Part shown: in pieces, positions 30,164 to 47,535 of the stretch
Layout of the letters: each line of letters opens with the position of its first letter
Position numbering within the stretch: the first letter of the stretch is position 1
Sequence record: PX132564.1
Source of the DNA: a phage
Length of the DNA: 47,573 nt
Strand: one strand, 5' to 3'
The notes under the pieces: generated by a model
Told to the model about the DNA's origin: nothing
The model's input: only the letters and a program-made list of their open reading frames with translations
The model's database searches: none
Translations under genes and position numbers: made by a program

Positions 30164-30324
30164 ACCGCCCCCCGTTTATTATTTATCTCCTCAGCCAGCC
30201 GCTGGGCTTTCAGCGGATTTCGGATAACAGAAAGACCGTGAAATACCCAGCCTCGCTTTGTAACGGAGTAGACGAAAGTGATCGCGCCTACCCGGATATT
30301 ATCGTGAGGATGGGTCATCGCCAT
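30136..30324 (-). CDS. lambda Orf60a-like protein
   Basis: 62-aa ORF immediately downstream of exo (lambda orf60a position). Confidence 0.6.
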
Positions 30325-30995
30325 TGCTCTCCAAATACAAAACCAATTTCAGCCAGTGCTTCGTCCATTTTTTCGATGAACTCCGGCACCATCTCGTCAA
30401 AACTCGCCATGTACTTTTCATCCCGCTCAACCACGACATAATGCAGGCCTTCACGCTTCATTCGTGGGTCATAGTTGGCAAAGTACCAGGCATCTTTTCG
30501 TGTCACCCACATGCTGTACTGCACCTGGGCCATGTAAGCCGACTTTATGGCCTCGAAACCACCGAGCCGGAACTTCATGAAATCCCGGGAGGTAAACGGG
30601 CATTTCAGCTCAAGGCCATTGCCGTCACTGCATAAACCATCGGGAGAGCAGGCGGTGCGCATACTTTCGTCGCGATAGATGATCGGGGATTCAGTAACAT
30701 TCACGCCGGAAGTGAATTCAAACAGGGTTCTGGCGTCGTTCTCGTACTGTTTTCCCCACGCCAGCGCCTTAGCATTAACTTCCGGAGCCACACCGGTGCA
30801 AACCTCAGCCAGCAGGGTGTGGAAGTAGGACATTTTCATGTCAGGCCACTTCTTTCCTGAGCGGGGCTTTGCTATCACGTTGTGAACTTCTGAAGCGGTG
30901 ATGACGCCGAGCCGTAATTTGTGCCATGCATCATCCCCCTGTTCGACAGCTCTCACGTCGATCCCGGTACGCTGCAGGATAATGTCCGGTGTCAT
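30315..30995 (-). CDS. exo: exonuclease (Red-alpha)
   Basis: 226 aa [43 protein letters not shown]..., lambda Exo. Confidence 0.96.
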
Positions 30996-31777
30996 GCTGC
31001 CACCTTCTGCTCAGTGGCTTTCTGTTTCAGGAATCCAAGAGCTTTCACTGCTTCGGCCTGTGTCAGTTCTGACGATGCGCGAATGTCGCGGCGAAATATC
31101 TGGGAACAGAGCGGCAATAAGTCGTCATCCCATGTTTTGTCCAGGGCAATCAGCAGAGTGTTAATCTCCTGCATGGTTTCATCGTTAACCGGAGTGATGT
31201 CGCGTTCCGGCTGACGTTCCGCAGTGTATGCAGTATTTTCGACAATGCGCTCGGCTTCATCCTTGTCATAGATACCAGCAAATCCGAAGGCCAGACGGGC
31301 ACACTGAATCATGGCTTTATGCCGTAACATCCGTTTGGGATGCGACTGCCACGGCCCCGTGATTTCTCTGCCTTCGCGAGTTTTGAATGGTTCGCGGCGG
31401 CATTCATCCATCCATTCGGTAACGCAGATCGGATGATTGCGGTCTTTGCGGTAAATCCGGCACGTACATGATTCATTGTCCTGCTCAAAGTCCATGCCAT
31501 CAAACTGCTGGTTTTCATTGATGATGCGGGACCAGCCATCAACGCCCACCACCGGAACGATGCCGTTCTGCTTATCAGGGAAGGCGTAAATTTCTTTCGT
31601 CCACGGATTAAGGCCGTACTGGTTGGCGACGATCAGCAATGCGATGAACTGCGCATCGCTGGCATCACCTTTAAATGCCGTCTGACGAAGAGTGGTGATC
31701 AGTTCCTGTGGGTCGACAGAATCCATGCCGACACGTTCAGCCAGCTTCCCAGCCAGCGTTGCGAGTGCTGTACTCAT
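30992..31777 (-). CDS. bet: recombinase Bet (Red-beta)
   Basis: 261 aa [48 protein letters not shown]..., lambda Bet. Confidence 0.96.
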
Positions 31778-31782
31778 CCGTT

Positions 31783-32079
31783 TTATACCTCTGAATCAAT
31801 ATCAACATGGTGGTGAGCAATGGTTTCAACCATGTACCGGATGTGTTCTGCCATGCGCTCCTGAAACTCAACATCGTCATCAAACGCACGGGTAATGGCT
31901 TTTTTGCTGGCCCCGCAGCGTTGCAAATGATCGATGCAGAGTGATTCAAACAGGTGCTGTGGAAGACCTTTTTCCATGTCGTCTGCCAGTTCTGCCTCTT
32001 TCTCTTCACGGGCGATCTGCTGGTAGTGACGCGCCCAGCTTTGAGCCTCAAGACGATCCTGAATGTAATAAGCGTTCAT
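31783..32079 (-). CDS. gam: Gam (RecBCD inhibitor), 98-aa form
   Basis: [46 protein letters not shown]..., lambda Gam; the track shows only the 98-aa form open. Confidence 0.9.
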
Positions 32080-34050: not shown

Positions 34051-34590
34051 ATGCAACCACTTACATACCAACAGACTAGCGGATTTAGCCCGACTGCGGT
34101 GATAAATCGTTCTCAAACAAAACAGGTGCCAGGCCACGAAAAAATCCGTGATGCCGTCCGCGCCTGGTCGGCTGTAGATAATCAGGATGTCGTTGCCACA
34201 CTCATTGTGAATGAGTATCTGGAGCAGGGCGGCGGCACCATCGATTTCCCTGATGATGTCAGCCGTGCACGCCAGAAGCTGTTCCGCTTCCTCGATAACA
34301 AATTCGATTCTGAAAAATACCGAAATAACGTGCGTGAACTGACCCCGGCAATTCTGGCGGTACTACCGCTGGAATATCGCGGTTACCTGGTTGAGCAGGA
34401 TAGCTTCATGGCTAGGTTGGCTGAAATGGAAAAGGAACTCAGTGAGGCAAAACAGGCTGTCATTCTCAACGCACCACGCCACCAGAAACTGAAGGAAATT
34501 AGTGAAGGTATTGTGTCGATGTTTCGTGTGGACCCAGATCTGGCTGGTCCATTGATGGCGATGGTTACTACCATGCTGGGGGCGATATGA
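34051..34590 (+). CDS. CII-like / YdaT-family regulatory protein (putative)
   Basis: 179-aa ORF in the cII position with AAGGAG RBS; not lambda CII; family assignment from recollection only. Confidence 0.45.
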   Translation: MQPLTYQQTSGFSPTAVINRSQTKQVPGHEKIRDAVRAWSAVDNQDVVATLIVNEYLEQGGGTIDFPDDVSRARQKLFRFLDNKFDSEKYRNNVRELTPAILAVLPLEYRGYLVEQDSFMARLAEMEKELSEAKQAVILNAPRHQKLKEISEGIVSMFRVDPDLAGPLMAMVTTMLGAI

Positions 34591-34676
34591 CAGGTTCAGA
34601 AATGGCGAAAGCCGGTCTGCTGGAACAGAACCGACTTTCAGGTGCAAATCGTAACACACTCATTGCGGGAGGAATT

Positions 34677-35606
34677 ATGGCAAACACTGCTGAGATATTC
34701 AATTTTCCAGTGCCGGATGCGGCACAAAAGGAGCCGCGCGTGGCAGATCTCGATGATGGTTATACGCGCATTGCAAATGAGTTGCTGGAAGCTGTGATGC
34801 TGGCCGGATTAACACAGCACCAGCTTCTGGTCTTTCTGGCTGTCATGCGCAAAACATATGGCTTTAATAAAAAACTGGATTGGGTTAGCAACGAGCAACT
34901 TTCCGAATTAACCGGGATATTGCCGCACAAGTGTTCTGCTGCAAAAAGTGTTCTGGTAAAGCGTGGGATTTTTATTCAGAGCGGGCGGAATACCGGCATT
35001 AATAATGTGGTCAGTGAATGGTCAACATTACCCGAATCAGGTAAGAAAAATAAAGTTTACCTGAAAGAGGTAAATTTACCTGAATCAGGTAAAAAAAGTT
35101 TACCCAAATCAGGTAAAGGCGTTTACCCGAATCAGGTAAACACAAAAGACAAACTAACAAAAGACAATATAAAACCTTTTTCGTCCGAGAATTCTGGCGA
35201 ATCCTCTGACCAACCAGAAAACGATCTTCCTGTGGTGAAACCGGATGCTGCAATTCAGAGCGGCAGCAAGTGGGGGACAGCAGAAGACCTGACCGCCGCA
35301 GAGTGGATGTTTGACATGGTGAAGACCATCGCGCCATCAGCCAGAAAACCGAATTTTGCAGGGTGGGCTAACGATATCCGCCTGATGCGTGAACGTGACG
35401 GACGTAACCACCGCGACATGTGCGTGCTGTTCCGCTGGGCATGCCAGGACAACTTCTGGTCCGGTAACGTGCTAAGTCCGGCCAAACTCCGCGACAAGTG
35501 GACCCAACTCGAAATCAACCGTAACAAGCAACAGGCAGGCGTGACAGCTAGCAAACCAAAACTCGACCTGACAAACACAGACTGGATTTACGGGGTGGAT
35601 CTATGA
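34677..35606 (+). CDS. O: replication initiator O
   Basis: MANTAEIFNFPVPDAAQKEPRVADLDDGYTRIANELLEA... is lambda O N-terminus-like; GGGAGG RBS before the ATG at 34677; ori iterons inside. Confidence 0.85.
   Translation: MANTAEIFNFPVPDAAQKEPRVADLDDGYTRIANELLEAVMLAGLTQHQLLVFLAVMRKTYGFNKKLDWVSNEQLSELTGILPHKCSAAKSVLVKRGIFIQSGRNTGINNVVSEWSTLPESGKKNKVYLKEVNLPESGKKSLPKSGKGVYPNQVNTKDKLTKDNIKPFSSENSGESSDQPENDLPVVKPDAAIQSGSKWGTAEDLTAAEWMFDMVKTIAPSARKPNFAGWANDIRLMRERDGRNHRDMCVLFRWACQDNFWSGNVLSPAKLRDKWTQLEINRNKQQAGVTASKPKLDLTNTDWIYGVDL
35031..35140 (+). repeat. replication origin iterons inside O (four 18-19 bp repeats TTTACC(C/T)(G/A)AATCAGGTAAA) followed by an A/T-rich segment
   Basis: Copies at about 35031, 35076, 35098, 35121, each an internal inverted repeat TTACC...GGTAA; A-rich stretch 35141-35180. 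Confidence 0.7.
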
Positions 35607-36304: not shown

Positions 36305-36553
36305 AGCTAAAGTATTAGCTTAAAAATAAAGTATACCTAGCGAATATAATCTAGGACTAGTTGTAACGCCCGAAATGATTGATTGCGTGAGCAACAAAAT
36401 TTTTCTTCCATTGTTGTGAAATCATTTAGCCATAAAGTTTATGCAGAGATTTTATTTTATTTTTGAGTTGATTTTTTTGTAACGAGCTGTATATTTCGCG
36501 CCTCTTGTCATACCAGTTATTTTTTTCATTATATTCATAACGTTGATTGAACT

Positions 36554-39500
36554 ATGACCACTGTGAATAAAAAGTTAAAAAAAACTGCATCTGGCGCGAT
36601 TACATGGTCGGTAATTGTTACCCAGATATTATCTCCAGTTTCTCTTTCTTTGATCCCAGCAAACAGTTTTGCATCATCTGGTAATAAAGATGTTACGCAA
36701 ATTTATGCCAGCGATGAGCATGCAAATAAAGTGGCCTCATTTGCAGCAAGTGCAGGTCAGAGCCTGGCGAATAATAATGCAAGTAGTTTTGCTGTAAATA
36801 CTTTATCAACTCAGGCGACAAAAGAGGTCGTCGACTGGTTGCAACAATATGGCAATGCGCGCATCAAGCTTAATGTCGATGATTCTTTTTCCTTGAAGGA
36901 TTCATCATTCGACTTTTTATATCCATGGCTGGATACTCAGGATTATGTGTTATTCAGTCAGACATCACTACATCGTACTGATGACCGAAATCAGACCAAT
37001 ATTGGTTTGGGGATTCGTCATTTCACTCCTGATAACGCAATGTTGGGTGCGAATGTTTTCTATGATTACGATTTAAGTCGTAGTCACTCTCGTGCAGGTT
37101 TTGGGGTTGAGTACTGGAGGGATTATTTCAGGCTTGGTGTAAATACCTATTTTGGTCTATCTGACTGGAAGAACAGTCGTGATATTGATGATTATCTGGA
37201 AAGACCTGCAAATGGCTGGGATTTTTCTGCTGAAGGATGGCTACCTGCTTATCCGCAATTAGGGGCATCTATTCAGTTTGAAAAATATTATGGTAAAAAT
37301 GTCGGGTTATTTGGAAGCGATAACCTGCAGGAAAACCCTTACGCAGTTACTGGGGGAATTTCTTATACACCAGTTCCTCTGATTAAGTTTTCTGCACAGC
37401 ATAAGCAAGGACAGAGCAACACTCACGATACAACCTTTGGTGTTGAGTTTAATTATCGCCCGGGCGTTTCCTTGGCTGAACAGCTTAGCAGCGATAATGT
37501 TGCAGTTATGCGAGAAGTCCAGAACCGGCGTTATGATTTTGTTGAACGAAATAACAACATTGTTCTGGAGTACAAGAAGAAGCATGCACTGAAAATCAGT
37601 TTGCCAGAGTCTGTTCAGGGGGAGGGGGAATCAATCATCCCTGTAACACTGACAATCAACAATGCTAGTGGTGGTATCAAGTCTGTACAGTGGAATGATA
37701 GTGCATTCACTGCGGCTGGCGGCAAGATCAGTGGAAATGGCACATCATGGCAGATCACTTTACCGGCTTATAAAAGCGAAGGTGTAAATTCGTGGAATGT
37801 TGGAGCCACAGTACAGGATAACAGAGGCAACGTTTCCAACTATGCCGTGATGAATATTAGCGTTACTGATAGTGGTGTCTCGACGGCTGATTCGTCTTTT
37901 ACACTGGATGGAGATTCGTCGCCGACAATCTCTGCTGATAGCCAATCCACTTATCCGATAGTATTAAGCCTGAAAGATAGTAACGGTAAGGCATTAACCG
38001 GACTGGCTGATGACATTGAAATGTCAGTGGAATTTACAGCAGATAGCAATAGTGCTCGACAGCGTGAAACGGTAACTGCTCCGTCATTAGGCGCGGTAGA
38101 GGAAATCTCTGCTGGGGTATATCGCTCTAAAAGCGAAGGTGTAAATTCGTGGAATGTTGGAGCCACAGTACAGGATAACAGAGGCAACGTTTCCAACTAT
38201 GCCGTGATGAATATTAGCGTTACTGATAGTGGTGTCTCGACGGCTGATTCGTCTTTTACACTGGATGGAGATTCGTCGCCGACAATCTCTGCTGATAGCC
38301 AATCCACTTATCCGATAGTATTAAGCCTGAAAGATAGTAACGGTAAGGCATTAACCGGACTGGCTGATGACATTGAAATGTCAGTGGAATTTACAGCAGA
38401 TAGCAATAGTGCTCGACAGCGTGAAACGGTAACTGCTCCGTCATTAGGCGCGGTAGAGGAAATCTCTGCTGGGGTATATCGCTCTGTTCTGGCTGCTGGT
38501 TCGCAGGCTGGTACGGTACGTGTAACTGCAAAAGTTCAGGGAAAAACATTTACTCTCAGTATTAAGCAAACAGCAACAACAGAACCTGATTCTGAGGTCA
38601 GTGCTGTTTTAACCGCTGCACCAGCAGAACAGGTAGTTGGTTACAATATCAATCTACAACTGGCAGTGAAGGATTCACAAGGAAATGCAATCACTGGTGA
38701 TAACACTCTGAGCTTTTATGCTCTTAACCAGGCAGAAGGAGTCGAGTTTGGGACTGTAACGGAAAAAGACGGTGTCTATAGCGCGACAGTAACTTCAAAA
38801 CGAGCTGGTAAGATTACTATCGGTGTTAAATCTGATAGTCATGATTTCTCAGGTGTTAAGAAAGAAATCACCTTTATTGAGGACCGGCAGCAGGTTACAT
38901 TCTCTCAGTTTGAAGCCAGCCAAAATAATGCATTGGCTGATGGAAAACAGAGAAATATGGTAACTGTAAGCCTTGCGGACCGTTTCGGCAATGTTGTTCC
39001 TGGTTATGCTGTCACATTGTCTTTACCAGCAGGGATAACTCAAGTTGGTGGTGAACATGCTGTTTCAACTGACGAAAATGGTAATGCTATTTTTGCGTTA
39101 ATAAGCTCCACTCCGGGGTCTTACGTGATTACAGCTCATGCTGGTTCTCAGATGTCTACTGAGTTAACAGTGACCTTTGCATCAAATATGACCGGAGCTT
39201 CACTGTCACTGACGCCTGAAAGCAGTAGTTTAATTTCCAATATTCCTGCTAATGGTAAGGATGCAGCGGTATTAGATGTGCAGCTGACAAATACGAATGC
39301 GTCGGTCAATGGGCAAAAGATTCAGCTCATCACCTCATCTGAAGGATTATCTGTACCAACAAATATCGTGACTGATTCAACAGGGCATGTTTCTGTTCCG
39401 CTTACAACGGTGAAAGCTGGTGAGTACACGGTGACTGCACGGGTGACTGACGGTTCCCATAGCGTGGAATCTGGCAGCGTTAAGTTAACTTTTGTGCCCG

Positions 39501-40462
39501 ATGTTGCTTCTGCAGAACTGAATATGAGTGTATCAAAACAGGAGATTGTGGCCGATGGCAGTGAAAACGCAACAGTAAACATTCAGTTGGTTGATGCGAA
39601 TAACAATGCGTTTACAGGCGAGGTGGATTTAACGATTACACCATCGACGGGAGCATCATTGACCAGTAGTAATCTGCAACTGGATGCTCATGGACAGGCA
39701 ACAACGCAGTTCACTGCATCGAAATCAGGCCAGTACACAATTCAGGCCGAGTATGTTCTGGATGGGAAACGCATAACCGCAAGCCAGAATATTGATGCCG
39801 TGACGGATGTGAAGGGGGCTGTGTTGGAGATCACATCATCTGCATCTTCGGCTGTAGTGAGCGATACCAACAATCTGGTATTTACGTTACTGTTGAAAAG
39901 TAAGTCAGGCGAAGCATTAAGTGGTCGAGCATTGAATGTTAAGACATCTGGGCCGTCTAAATATGGTGCGTTGGTGGTTGATAAAACCACAGTAACGACT
40001 GATGAGAACGGTCAGGCTACGGTAAGCGTACATGGTCGAACGGTTGGTTCGTATAAATTAACGGCGACCTTAAACGAACTTGGCAGTGATGTTAGCGCGG
40101 TGAAATCATTCTCCCTGTACGCTGATGACGCAAATGGAGTATTGACTCTAACAAAAGATCCTGGTTATGAGACAAACGATGGATCTCCAGTAGGTATTTA
40201 TGCTCGATTTGTCGATCATTTTGGAAACCCATTATCTGGTACGGTTGAGTTTTCTGCTGGTAGTGAAGATAGTCCAGACTCTCAACGGGTCAAAATGGAG
40301 CCTGCTACAGTAACGTTACACTGGACAGGTAATGCAGCTTCGGAATTCAGCACCTATGAAAGTGGTTATCACTGGATTAAGGCCAAAATAACGAATAGCA
40401 AAAATACATATGAGAAAACAATAAGGACTTATGTTGTAAAACTACCTGAAAAGGATAGTTAA
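36554..40462 (+). CDS. invasin/intimin-family inverse autotransporter adhesin with multiple Big (Ig-like) repeats
   Basis: 1302 aa; signal peptide, then a beta-barrel region (…LFSQTSLHRTDDRNQTNIGLGIRHF…NPYAVTGGISYTPVPL…DRNNNIVLEYKKK) resembling Yersinia invasin/intimin, then serial Ig-like repeats; AT-rich upstream. Confidence 0.85.
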   Translation: MTTVNKKLKKTASGAITWSVIVTQILSPVSLSLIPANSFASSGNKDVTQIYASDEHANKVASFAASAGQSLANNNASSFAVNTLSTQATKEVVDWLQQYGNARIKLNVDDSFSLKDSSFDFLYPWLDTQDYVLFSQTSLHRTDDRNQTNIGLGIRHFTPDNAMLGANVFYDYDLSRSHSRAGFGVEYWRDYFRLGVNTYFGLSDWKNSRDIDDYLERPANGWDFSAEGWLPAYPQLGASIQFEKYYGKNVGLFGSDNLQENPYAVTGGISYTPVPLIKFSAQHKQGQSNTHDTTFGVEFNYRPGVSLAEQLSSDNVAVMREVQNRRYDFVERNNNIVLEYKKKHALKISLPESVQGEGESIIPVTLTINNASGGIKSVQWNDSAFTAAGGKISGNGTSWQITLPAYKSEGVNSWNVGATVQDNRGNVSNYAVMNISVTDSGVSTADSSFTLDGDSSPTISADSQSTYPIVLSLKDSNGKALTGLADDIEMSVEFTADSNSARQRETVTAPSLGAVEEISAGVYRSKSEGVNSWNVGATVQDNRGNVSNYAVMNISVTDSGVSTADSSFTLDGDSSPTISADSQSTYPIVLSLKDSNGKALTGLADDIEMSVEFTADSNSARQRETVTAPSLGAVEEISAGVYRSVLAAGSQAGTVRVTAKVQGKTFTLSIKQTATTEPDSEVSAVLTAAPAEQVVGYNINLQLAVKDSQGNAITGDNTLSFYALNQAEGVEFGTVTEKDGVYSATVTSKRAGKITIGVKSDSHDFSGVKKEITFIEDRQQVTFSQFEASQNNALADGKQRNMVTVSLADRFGNVVPGYAVTLSLPAGITQVGGEHAVSTDENGNAIFALISSTPGSYVITAHAGSQMSTELTVTFASNMTGASLSLTPESSSLISNIPANGKDAAVLDVQLTNTNASVNGQKIQLITSSEGLSVPTNIVTDSTGHVSVPLTTVKAGEYTVTARVTDGSHSVESGSVKLTFVPDVASAELNMSVSKQEIVADGSENATVNIQLVDANNNAFTGEVDLTITPSTGASLTSSNLQLDAHGQATTQFTASKSGQYTIQAEYVLDGKRITASQNIDAVTDVKGAVLEITSSASSAVVSDTNNLVFTLLLKSKSGEALSGRALNVKTSGPSKYGALVVDKTTVTTDENGQATVSVHGRTVGSYKLTATLNELGSDVSAVKSFSLYADDANGVLTLTKDPGYETNDGSPVGIYARFVDHFGNPLSGTVEFSAGSEDSPDSQRVKMEPATVTLHWTGNAASEFSTYESGYHWIKAKITNSKNTYEKTIRTYVVKLPEKDS
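37772..38485 (+). repeat. perfect tandem duplication, 2 x 357 bp (119 codons), inside the adhesin gene
   Basis: Protein segment KSEGVNSWNVGATVQDNRGNVSNYAVMNISVTDSG...EEISAGVYRS occurs twice back to back; antisense track ORFs 37760-37945 and 38087-38302 are identical over their shared 60 residues. Confidence 0.9.
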
Positions 40463-40473
40463 CAAAATTGAAT

Positions 40474-40500
40474 GGGGAGGGCTTAGCCCTCCCTCTTTTT
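40474..40500. terminator. bidirectional rho-independent terminator between convergent adhesin and esterase genes
   Basis: GGGGAGGGC-tta-GCCCTCCC(T)C followed by TTTTT on plus and an A/T-rich run on minus. Confidence 0.7.
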
Positions 40501-41542
40501 ACAGGTTAGCGTTTGGGTTTTGTTGTTGGGGAGCTGTTTTTATAGGCGCTCCCAGGTTTTTAGTAAACCACTCAACGACTCTGTTTATAATAATTGGCTG
40601 ATACCATGTCTTATCGCCATGCTCGGCCCCTTCTACCAGCACGTACTCAGCGTTATCACCGTTCTTCTTCAACATCCTGAATAGTTTGGCGCTTTGCTCA
40701 GGTGAAACCAGAGTGTCTTTGCTACCATGCATAATAAGAAATGGGGGTTTTACTCCTTTCATATGTCCGATTGGACTGGCGTTTAGCGCTTTTTCTTTTG
40801 ACGCTGTGATGGGGGCTCCCGCAAAATTTCTGAATGCAGGGCCATTGATCATTAAGGCTTCGGTTACGGCAGGAGAGCGATGAACCTCCTGCACTGATTC
40901 AGGGAACCCCTCGCCAATATTCAACAAGTCAGAAATCCCATAAAGTGTGGCAACTGCCTGAACATCTGAGGATTGCTGAAGAAAGTCACCTTTATCAAAG
41001 GTTTTGTCACCATTTGTAGTTCCCATCATCTGGGCAAGCCATCCACCGGCAGAGTCACCCAGAACTCCGATTCTTTGAGGATCAATCCCATAATTGCTGG
41101 CATGCTCTCTCAGGTAACGTATTGCAGCTTTTCCATCCTCAACTGGTGCTGGAAATGTATCAGGAATTGTTCTGTATTCTACAGCGGCCACAACAAAACC
41201 AGCTTCTGCCAGAGCCATTCTCATTTCAATAAATTTGTCATGTTCAGAAGACATGAATCCGCCGCCGGGATAATAAATAATGGCTGGTTTTAAATCATTT
41301 GTTCGCGGGACAAGAACTGACATGTGAAGCTGTCTGACAGAACGAGTTCCTTTTATCTGGGAATAAACAACATCACCAATGAGATCGACCTGGTTTCTGG
41401 TCGGTGAAACACTAATGATATCTGCACCCGGGGTGTAACCAGGAAGATTAGTCTGGACAGGTGTTGCACAACTCCCGACCGACATGGCCATTGACATACC
41501 ATACAATAGTGTTGCAGATGATAATATCTTGTTAATTTTCAT
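40499..41542 (-). CDS. alpha/beta-hydrolase esterase/lipase, probable lipoprotein
   Basis: 347 aa; lipoprotein-type signal ending in Cys; oxyanion-hole PGGGF, nucleophile elbow GDSAGG, C-terminal HG. Confidence 0.8.
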   Translation of the reverse strand: MKINKILSSATLLYGMSMAMSVGSCATPVQTNLPGYTPGADIISVSPTRNQVDLIGDVVYSQIKGTRSVRQLHMSVLVPRTNDLKPAIIYYPGGGFMSSEHDKFIEMRMALAEAGFVVAAVEYRTIPDTFPAPVEDGKAAIRYLREHASNYGIDPQRIGVLGDSAGGWLAQMMGTTNGDKTFDKGDFLQQSSDVQAVATLYGISDLLNIGEGFPESVQEVHRSPAVTEALMINGPAFRNFAGAPITASKEKALNASPIGHMKGVKPPFLIMHGSKDTLVSPEQSAKLFRMLKKNGDNAEYVLVEGAEHGDKTWYQPIIINRVVEWFTKNLGAPIKTAPQQQNPNANL

Positions 41543-41989
41543 GTTTTACATGCCTTGACTTATCGGATGAAATTCTCTTACTAAATTTAACGGCAGTTTA
41601 ATAGCCGTACAACTCGTGGTAGCCAGGGAAATATCCCAGTCGTGGTTAAGGTTGTACTTGACGGCTATTATTTCAACAATGCTTAAAGTGAGAGCTTAAG
41701 GTTATGCGTATGTTTTACAGTCCGAGTAGATTCTGACCAATAGCTTCTTTGTATAATTCTGTCAGAAATAAATCTTGGCTTGCATGAAGTTTGAGACCTT
41801 ATCTTGTTTGATTATGAATAATCAATTCGCCATAATTGTATCACCGGAGCCTGAACAACTCCGGTGACTTCTGCGCTAAACGGGGACGTTTATGCGCACA
41901 CACAATCCAAACTCTCTTCTCCCTTCACAGATGCAGAAATGCACCTGCGTTTTTTTGCATCTAGCGTCTGACCTCTGTGGAGGTGAAGC

Positions 41990-45659: not shown

Positions 45660-45953
45660 TTATTGTGAGCAATACACACGCGCTTCCAGCGGAGTATAAA
45701 TGCCTAAAGTAATAAAACCGAGCAATCCATTTACGAATGTTTGCTGGGTTTCTGTTTTAACAACATTTTCTGCACCACCACAAATTTTTGCTGCATCGAC
45801 AGTTTTCTTCTGCCCAATTCCCGAAACGAAGAAATGATGGGTGATGGTTTCCTTTGGTGTTACTGCTGTAGGTTTGTTTCCAACAGTAAACGTCTGTTGA
45901 GCACATCCTGTAATAAGCATTGCCAGAGCGGCAGAAAACAACATTTTTTTCAT
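45660..45953 (-). CDS. bor: Bor lipoprotein (serum resistance)
   Basis: MKKMLFSAALAMLITGCAQQTFTVGNKPTAVTPKETITHHFFVSGIGQKKTVDAAKICGGAENVVKTETQQTF..., lambda Bor; start at internal ATG of track ORF. Confidence 0.92.
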   Translation of the reverse strand: MKKMLFSAALAMLITGCAQQTFTVGNKPTAVTPKETITHHFFVSGIGQKKTVDAAKICGGAENVVKTETQQTFVNGLLGFITLGIYTPLEARVYCSQ

Positions 45954-46433
45954 CTTATTATCCTGCATTGTTAAAAACGGCAGAATCCTATGTGACAACA
46001 ATTAAACGATAGTTAAATGGATTGATGAAAATTAAAACTACACAGGTGGGCTCAGACTATTGGAGGAAGTTGGGGACACTCAGAATCCTGTGGAATGAAA
46101 TAAACCGGTCTATCCGTCCATTACCCTTTTAGCTGCGCTGTATCGTCGCCGTATTCCCGCATTAACCATGACCGTAGCCCGACGGGGAATTCCTTCTGCG
46201 TGAGTGTGCGGGAATAATTAAAAACGATGCACACCGGGTTTTTACCGCGTTAATGATTCGCGGGTTTATCCCGGTGCGATGGTGGAAGAAACAGGAAGCT
46301 GTATTACAGAAAGTGCTACTACTGTATCCCGATGCGATGTATGTAATGTGAGTCAGATAATGGCACAGGATGTGGTGATGTGGCAGTCTGGAACACAGGA
46401 TATATTGTCAGAATAAGACCCGTAGGAATAAAA

Positions 46434-47523: not shown

Positions 47524-47535
47524 GGGCGGCGACCT
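47524..47535 (+). other. cosN cohesive-end sequence GGGCGGCGACCT
   Basis: Identical to the lambda 12-nt cohesive end as I recall it, followed by the lambda left-end leader that continues into position 1. Confidence 0.75.

Follow-up and report, generated by a model that had tools for sequence, protein, structure and literature searches.

A probable private tandem duplication of 119 codons in an inverse autotransporter adhesin gene on an Escherichia coli ST131 prophage haplotype

Invasin-like proteins of Yersinia ruckeri have many repeats, each of which is a whole domain, and the bor/iss and lom genes are cargo genes ('morons') of lambdoid phages. Periscope surface proteins, among which inverse autotransporters are counted, vary in repeat number by homologous recombination (PMC8201768 (2021); reviewed in PMC9704523). 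Among the inverse autotransporters of E. coli, IatB, IatC and IatD are reported to promote biofilm formation upon overexpression, and the same study saw no variation in tandem-repeat number for IatC or IatD (PMC6714894). Assembly errors in such tandem repeats are the subject of PMC6868369. Against this background, we analyzed a phage-borne adhesin gene that contains an exact tandem repeat of 357 bp. The favored reading, to which we assign a probability of roughly 0.7, is that the repeat is genuine and arose very recently, as a private, illegitimate tandem duplication of 119 codons on an E. coli ST131 prophage haplotype.

The window, that is, the whole stretch of 47,573 nucleotides that was analyzed (sequence record PX132564.1), is a complete lambda-like phage genome in circularly permuted form. 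The lambda cosN 12-mer is located at positions 47524-47535, and the start of the window continues the lambda left end. The late genes occupy positions 1 to ~26.9 kb, and the integrase and early region extend from 27.0 kb up to the lysis genes; in ST131 chromosomes the same DNA is present as a prophage that starts with the early region. Between the replication gene P and the nin region (P and ybcN/ninE) sits a module formed by the adhesin gene and an esterase gene convergent to it, the GC content being 0.43 for positions 36305-41989 versus 0.515 for the remainder of the window. A bor/iss homologue is also encoded by this phage, and no match to the adhesin gene was found among the INPHARED phage records. 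The features of this region are as follows.

30315-32079, minus strand: Red-type recombination genes (exo 30315-30995, bet 30992-31777, gam 31783-32079), from open reading frames and the annotation of the identical prophage region
36305-36553, plus strand: AT-rich intergenic region 5' of the adhesin gene, with two promoter-like hexamer pairs (36468-36495 and 36505-36532)
36554-40462, plus strand: inverse autotransporter (intimin/invasin-type) adhesin gene, 1302 aa, which bears the duplication; from the translated open reading frame and Pfam matches (IAT_beta, five Big_1, six Invasin_D3)
40474-40494, no strand assigned: GC-rich hairpin that separates the adhesin gene from the convergent esterase gene, terminator-like on both strands
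40499-41542, minus strand: alpha/beta-hydrolase (esterase) gene, which together with the adhesin gene makes up a low-GC cargo module

Matches to the promoter consensus in the scanned region are no more numerous than in shuffled sequences, which makes the hexamer pairs weak evidence for a promoter. The adhesin gene has the RefSeq product name 'inverse autotransporter beta domain-containing protein'. The IAT_beta match spans profile positions 3-279 of 279, and the barrel is similar to invasin (PDB 4e1t_A, E 8.5e-74) and intimin (4e1s_A, E 5.9e-63). In the passenger, Pfam places Big_1 in five stretches and Invasin_D3 in six, and we parsed nine Ig-like modules in the order D0 - H - D1 - D2...D7, with the chimeric module H adjoining the barrel end of the stalk, between D0 and D1. 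By its N-terminal IAT_beta barrel, which is the 12-stranded translocation domain of this family, and C-terminal tandem Big_1/Invasin_D3 passenger, the protein belongs to the inverse autotransporters (type Ve). Its N-terminus, MTTVNKKLKKTASGAITWSVIVTQILSPVSLSLIPANSFA, looks by eye like a putative signal peptide. The parts of the protein that matter for the repeat are listed below.

36722-37555, plus strand: beta-barrel translocation domain, aa 57-334 (Pfam PF11924, IAT_beta, 338 bits, E 5e-101)
37586-37870, plus strand: D0, the first (membrane-proximal) Ig-like module by the domain parse, aa 345-439, of which the final 33 residues, encoded by segment A and a few further codons, lie within the duplicated unit
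37871-38227, plus strand: chimeric Ig-like module H, aa 440-558, in which residues 1-86 of D1 are joined to residues 63-95 of D0 (119 residues)
38228-38590, plus strand: native D1 module, aa 559-679 (segments B and C), a unit present one to four times in other strains

The first passenger module (aa 342-441) matches the intimin D00-D0 chain 6tqd_A with E 9e-10. A profile of D2-D7 matches D1 end to end and gives no match to the tail of H or D0. When the tails of D0 and D1 are aligned by eye, they appear to be offset by 3-5 residues, and the offset seems to be compensated elsewhere in the module. AlphaFold2 predictions of single modules on the paralogue alignment are all-beta for both H (pLDDT 60) and native D1 (pLDDT 51), at a confidence too low for a comparison of the two.

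Neither a LysM domain nor a C-type lectin tip was found by Pfam. None of the NCBIfam equivalog cut-offs for intimin, SinH/IatB, IatC, Ilp and YchO was reached, the best scores being 393 of 2400 bits for the IatC N-terminal model, 329 of 1400 for intimin and 325 of 999 for SinH. Identity with SinH/IatB, the ST131 vaccine antigen, was rejected, as the latter has 724 aa and is another protein (PMC9937491); FdeC, YeeJ and IatA-D were likewise rejected, as neither their sizes (465-2,934 aa) nor their chromosomal locations fit (PMC6714894). In PHROGs, families 7803 and 16344, to which this adhesin family corresponds, are annotated as 'unknown function', and our literature search found no paper characterizing this prophage adhesin. 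Thus, the adhesin appears to be an unnamed, uncharacterized prophage protein outside the six E. coli inverse autotransporters of Goh et al.

The original prediction described an exact, in-frame repeat of 119 codons, and Tandem Repeats Finder, direct string comparison and translation agree with it to the base, positions 37772-38485 being exact. Positions 37772-38128 equal 38129-38485 base for base over 357 bp, and Tandem Repeats Finder reports 37771-38485 with a period of 357, 2.0 copies, 100% matches, 0 indels and a score of 1430. Beyond the unit, the identity continues for one base leftward (T at 37771 and T at 38128) and for 0 bases rightward. The unit starts in frame, with (37772-36554) mod 3 = 0, at codon 407, and the two copies correspond to codons 407-525 and 526-644 of an open reading frame that is stop-free across both of them and translates into 1302 aa. 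For a perfect match of 357 bp, a chance origin is impossible. Mapping by blastn divides the repeat region into the following segments.

37772-38128, plus strand: copy 1 of the 357-bp unit, made up of segment A (37772-37862, the D0 tail) and segment B (37863-38128, the first 86 residues of D1)
38117-38140, plus strand: novel junction of B to A, GTATATCGCTCT joined to AAAAGCGAAGGT, encoding the peptide GVYRS/KSEGV, with 1 bp of microhomology
38129-38485, plus strand: copy 2 of the unit, A (38129-38219) and B (38220-38485), 100% identical to copy 1
38486-38576, plus strand: segment C, 91 bp, the tail of D1, of the same length as A

In gene coordinates, the single segments are A at 1219-1309 (91 bp), B at 1310-1575 (266 bp) and C at 1576-1666 (91 bp). 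Segments A and C have no relationship at the DNA level. The sequence diagnostic of the B-to-A junction is GTATATCGCTCTAAAAGCGAAGGT, and a 31-mer specific to the junction is GGGGTATATCGCTCTAAAAGCGAAGGTGTAA.

The adhesin gene is carried by about 560 of the 5,426 complete E. coli genomes. In other strains its segments follow the order P-A-B-C-D, P-A-B-C-B-C-D or P-A-B-C-B-C-B-C-D, that is, A-(B-C)n with n from 1 to 4, and the repeat unit B+C is a whole Ig domain. The corresponding gene lengths are 3552 bp in strain 1442, 3909 bp in isolate 42 and 4266 bp in EC958, and four-copy proteins of 1540 aa are on record (e.g. P0001). The canonical 357-bp unit occurs in 1402 places in total among 561 records. 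Counting copy number as places of the unit per record in 60 of the 561 records, taken at even spacing, we found three copies in 37 records, two in 13 and one in 9 (~62%, 22% and 15%), and six places in one record. In the latter, FXCREC048, an insertion sequence truncates the gene, and there are either six copies or two loci. Copies within the canonical array are 97-98% identical, with their differences clustered at the array edges. The one- and two-copy alleles are both present on several diverged haplotypes. The flanks of the window gene have 0 mismatches to ST131 prophages with one, two and three canonical copies, for 9.5 kb on the upstream side and 5-8 kb on the downstream side. From these data, expansion and contraction of the canonical array are frequent and have taken place recently.

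The window has the segment order P-A-B-A-B-C-D, and the register of its repeat (A+B) is shifted by 91 bp from that of the canonical one (B+C). The two kinds of repeat share a period of 357 bp since A and C are equally long. A place for the window repeat in the series of 3552-, 3909- and 4266-bp alleles was considered and rejected: those alleles contain only one copy of its exact unit, and their self-similarity at a lag of 357 and segment analysis belong to the other register. A check of related genomes therefore did not bear out the duplication as an allele of the common length array. The original prediction had also named length and phase variation of the adhesin as a consequence. Gene length does differ among strains, through a different 357-bp unit; phase variation fails on the arithmetic of the unit, as discussed below. 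From the difference in register, we conclude on sequence grounds that the window duplication is a separate private event, which makes a chimeric domain, and not an allele of the common array.

Searches for the new junction used 50-bp queries in complete genomes and shorter exact patterns in the other collections. The 50-bp query had no match in the 5,426 complete E. coli genomes, and none of the exact junction patterns was found in IMG/VR, JGI metagenome contigs or GTDB representatives; the junction was also absent from the best 120 protein clusters and from 37 IMG/VR loci. No protein record contains the exact 1302-aa window protein. A protein search with the junction peptide returned 20 candidates, all of them fragments, and is thus a weak negative. 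Segment A is found in 562 places in 560 records of complete genomes, which makes it essentially single-copy and means that finished genomes contain practically no duplications that take in A. The allele is a singleton across every collection that we examined, an observation that we counted against the best explanation.

The age of the repeat is constrained by several comparisons. There are 0 mismatches between the copies, the window gene minus one copy equals the single-copy allele of strain 1442 with 0 differences, and the flanks equal those of ST131 prophages. That the copies have diverged neither from each other nor from the parental haplotype argues for a very recent event, as the original prediction had proposed. 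The parent would be an E. coli ST131 prophage haplotype, most simply its single-copy allele. In this parent, the repeat would have been produced by one illegitimate join with 1 bp of microhomology, which linked the end of B to the start of A through either slippage during replication or unequal exchange between sister strands. The minimal microhomology and the lack of relationship between A and C argue for an illegitimate join and not for homologous crossing-over in the old array.

Four other readings were weighed against this duplication. The source DNA may have been one-copy or canonical, and the A-B-A-B order may have come from a chimeric molecule, from a low-frequency subpopulation that formed a loop in the assembly graph or from a wrong count of loop traversals; we regard this as rather unlikely. 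It is favored by the status of the allele as a singleton, with neither protein nor junction on record, by the origin of the window as a circularized phage contig and by the difficulty of the array for short reads, since 12 of the 37 IMG/VR loci break off inside the array and the unit occurs as orphan 277-357-bp contigs in draft assemblies. Yet collapse or mis-traversal of the canonical array could not make the B-to-A junction, because such a k-mer is absent from A-B-C and A-B-C-B-C templates. The product is also in frame and clean to the base, and an independent back-jump allele from D1 to D0 in another strain indicates that such events happen. Consequently, the assembly artefact that the original prediction had offered as an alternative is unlikely in the form of repeat collapse or mis-traversal, the junction being new sequence, and may still apply in the form of a chimeric or minority molecule. 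As the window is an excised circular phage genome, the duplication could exist in only part of the phage population, and the copy number could exceed two if the assembly was made from short reads. An origin in two steps appears less likely still: sister arrays mispaired by one unit, with one end joined in the heterologous flank, would give A-B-A-B-C-B-C, which would then contract to A-B-A-B-C. It would account for the exact 357-bp period despite the 91-bp shift in register, ST131 has mostly three copies on the same haplotype, so that mispairing must be frequent, and contraction is evidently common. It nevertheless requires two events, both B copies of the window are of the first-copy type, without the four single-base differences of internal copies, and the spacing in the other private allele, 363 bp, misses the register by 6 bp. 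To our knowledge, no established mechanism forces an in-register junction in non-homologous DNA, which also counts against the two-step origin.

Inheritance of the common two-copy allele of the polymorphic array would fit the length of the gene, which is the same (3909 bp, 1302 aa) as in that widespread allele. This reading is refuted by the sequence of the middle 91 bp, which is A and not C, with 71 of 91 positions different. An ungapped comparison of the window with the common 3909-bp allele shows 75 differing positions; 71 of these lie at gene positions 1576-1666 (window 38129-38219, where A replaces C), and the remaining four are copy-specific single bases in the adjoining B copy, just downstream. 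The internal junction peptide NIKQAAITDSD is also missing, with GVYRS/KSEGV in its stead. As repeat tracts in surface-protein genes often serve as phase switches, we further considered a programmed on/off switch through gain and loss of repeats, and found it very improbable. The unit of 357 = 3 x 119 bp lies within the coding region and keeps the frame at any copy number. Since the canonical alleles with one, two, three and four copies are all intact open reading frames, phase variation is excluded and only length can change. A private illegitimate duplication on the ST131 haplotype has the best agreement with the data.

If it is correct, the stalk would gain one module, the chimera H with a D1 front and a D0 tail, beside the outer-membrane barrel and with the frame kept. 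One Ig module lengthens a stalk by a few nanometres. The two perfect 357-bp copies would form a substrate for homologous unequal recombination via host RecA or phage Exo/Bet, and the allele should revert to one copy or expand at a high rate; for perfect copies of this length, ready recombination by either route is expected. By extension, the Red genes could promote recombination between the copies in lytic growth. The analysis directly shows the sequence facts, the shift in register, the privacy of the junction and the copy-number variation in the population, while how the ends were joined, that H folds and is displayed on the surface, that stalk length would matter for adhesion, and that the repeat is unstable are inferences.

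A second private allele is present in UMEA 3489-1 (P0010/L004), where a back-jump of 363 bp from D1 to D0 has minimal microhomology and a junction that is absent from finished genomes. It is unlikely that two independent illegitimate events would both come within 6 bp of the domain period by chance. The window repeat and the canonical array have exactly the same period in different registers, which a simple random duplication would not predict, and this observation, too, was counted against the best explanation. Possible sources of the match are chance, a filter for insertions of approximately one module that fold and are secreted, or mispaired canonical repeats. It can be speculated, as a tentative and minority view, that the window captures the birth of a new repeat array beside the old one, and that the two near-period back-jumps imply a constraint, either a secretion filter that lets through only inserts of roughly one module, chimeric ones included, or in-register templating of nearby non-homologous joins by mispaired canonical repeats. 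If true, this would be a testable route by which variable-length stalk arrays start and shift register.

Taken alone, the duplication is an ordinary private polymorphism, and length variation of an adhesin is of a known sort; the private A+B allele is new here, and repeat-number variation in surface stalk proteins is already known. The prophage that carries the adhesin has reached fixation across most of the pandemic ST131 lineage. The stalk of the adhesin varies in length on an otherwise identical haplotype, which identifies it as a fast-evolving surface structure. A variable stalk could have consequences for adhesion, for biofilm formation or for exposure to antibodies. The adhesin locus also appears to be systematically mis-assembled in short-read genomes. 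The window allele suggests that new arrays can start out of register with domain boundaries and give chimeric modules, and its match to the domain period is a hint that only some duplications are able to persist.

The known systems listed at the outset resemble this locus in different respects. Like Periscope proteins, the adhesin is a single-chain surface protein with a tandem Ig-like stalk and near-identical DNA repeats, in one to four copies on one ST131 haplotype, with homologous recombination as the presumed source of variation. The Periscope hallmark of near-identical DNA repeats of >50 residues is present both in the window (119 codons in two copies at 100%) and in the canonical array (2-3 copies at 97-98%); a repeat number that differs between close strains is found for canonical B+C only, A+B being known as one two-copy allele. 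The window repeat is distinct from the established array of this gene, being a new two-copy, register-shifted array whose unit spans parts of two domains, so that the added module is chimeric. The invasin-like inverse autotransporters of Y. ruckeri (cited in PMC6714894) share the near-identical Big domains in the passenger and the same risk of misassembly, but the window has only two copies and these are out of register with domain boundaries. With intimin and invasin (PDB 4e1s, 4e1t, 6tqd and 1cwv), the adhesin has in common the homologous barrel, a D00-like first module and a Big_1/Invasin_D3 stalk; it differs from them in the location of its gene on a lambdoid phage and in having no LysM domain or C-type lectin tip by Pfam. 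FdeC, YeeJ and IatA-D (Goh et al. 2019, PMC6714894) belong to the same secretion type and the same species. Finally, the locus is a candidate lambdoid moron, being a low-GC insert amid conserved phage genes with its own putative terminator and a predicted outer-membrane or surface protein that possibly benefits the lysogen, whereas, in contrast to bor/iss and lom, the adhesin gene is far larger and is paired with an esterase gene.

In the canonical array, built of copies of the 357-bp whole-Ig-domain unit, the differences between copies are concentrated at both edges: ~65 bp at the start of the first copy and ~30 bp at the end of the last one (L002 9093-10163, which is strain EC958, and L001 9310-10023). 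The interior of the array is homogeneous in both loci, which fits a model in which unequal exchange keeps the internal repeats alike.

Another kind of non-canonical adhesin allele was identified in E. coli UMEA 3489-1 (L004 4875-4924; protein P0010, 1423 aa). On a canonical two-copy background, this allele carries a 363-bp (121-aa) back-jump from the second Ig-like stalk module, D1 (after ...APSLGA), to the first, D0 (GNGTSWQ...), with minimal microhomology at the junction. The same junction was not found in any complete genome searched.

Short-read assemblies (IMG/VR loci L020 and L030-L041; proteins P0121-P0130) often end inside the canonical array, as 12 of 37 IMG/VR loci do, or contain the unit as an orphan contig of 277-357 bp. 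Because short-read assemblies break in the array or leave these orphans, adhesin-gene copy numbers taken from draft genomes are unreliable. One fragment, P0124, is labelled Acinetobacter variabilis and is 100% identical, probably reflecting contamination. In E. coli FXCREC048 (L042, NZ_CM135821.1), an ISEc23 insertion truncates the 3' end of the adhesin gene, and the canonical unit occurs at six places in the genome, representing either a long array or two loci.

The window contains a whole lambda-like phage genome (1-47573), opened ~38 bp past the cosN 12-mer at 47524-47535. Its late genes precede the integrase and early region, which is the order of the excised form, circularly permuted relative to the ST131 prophage. 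Since the ISEc23 or ISEc52 insertions present in many ST131 prophage copies are missing from the window, the phage copy here may be intact and inducible. The adhesin gene, used alone as the query, has no match in the INPHARED phage collection. The features of the replication and cargo regions are as follows.

34587-35606, replication initiator gene, enclosing tandem repeats at 35028-35140
36305-41989, low-GC two-gene cargo module (adhesin and convergent esterase), between replication gene P and ybcN/ninE
40499-41542, minus strand, esterase gene, convergent with the adhesin gene
45660-46001, minus strand, gene for an outer-membrane lipoprotein of the Bor/Iss type, downstream of the lysis genes

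The GC content of the cargo module is 0.43, versus 0.515 in the rest of the window. A GC-rich hairpin at 40474-40494 looks like a terminator on both strands. The Bor/Iss-type gene is a second lysogen-benefit cargo gene of this phage. Finally, the repeats within the replication initiator gene are imperfect, 19-23 bp long and TTACCCGAATCAGGTAAAAAAAG-like, and in both form and position they are similar to the iterons at lambdoid phage origins.
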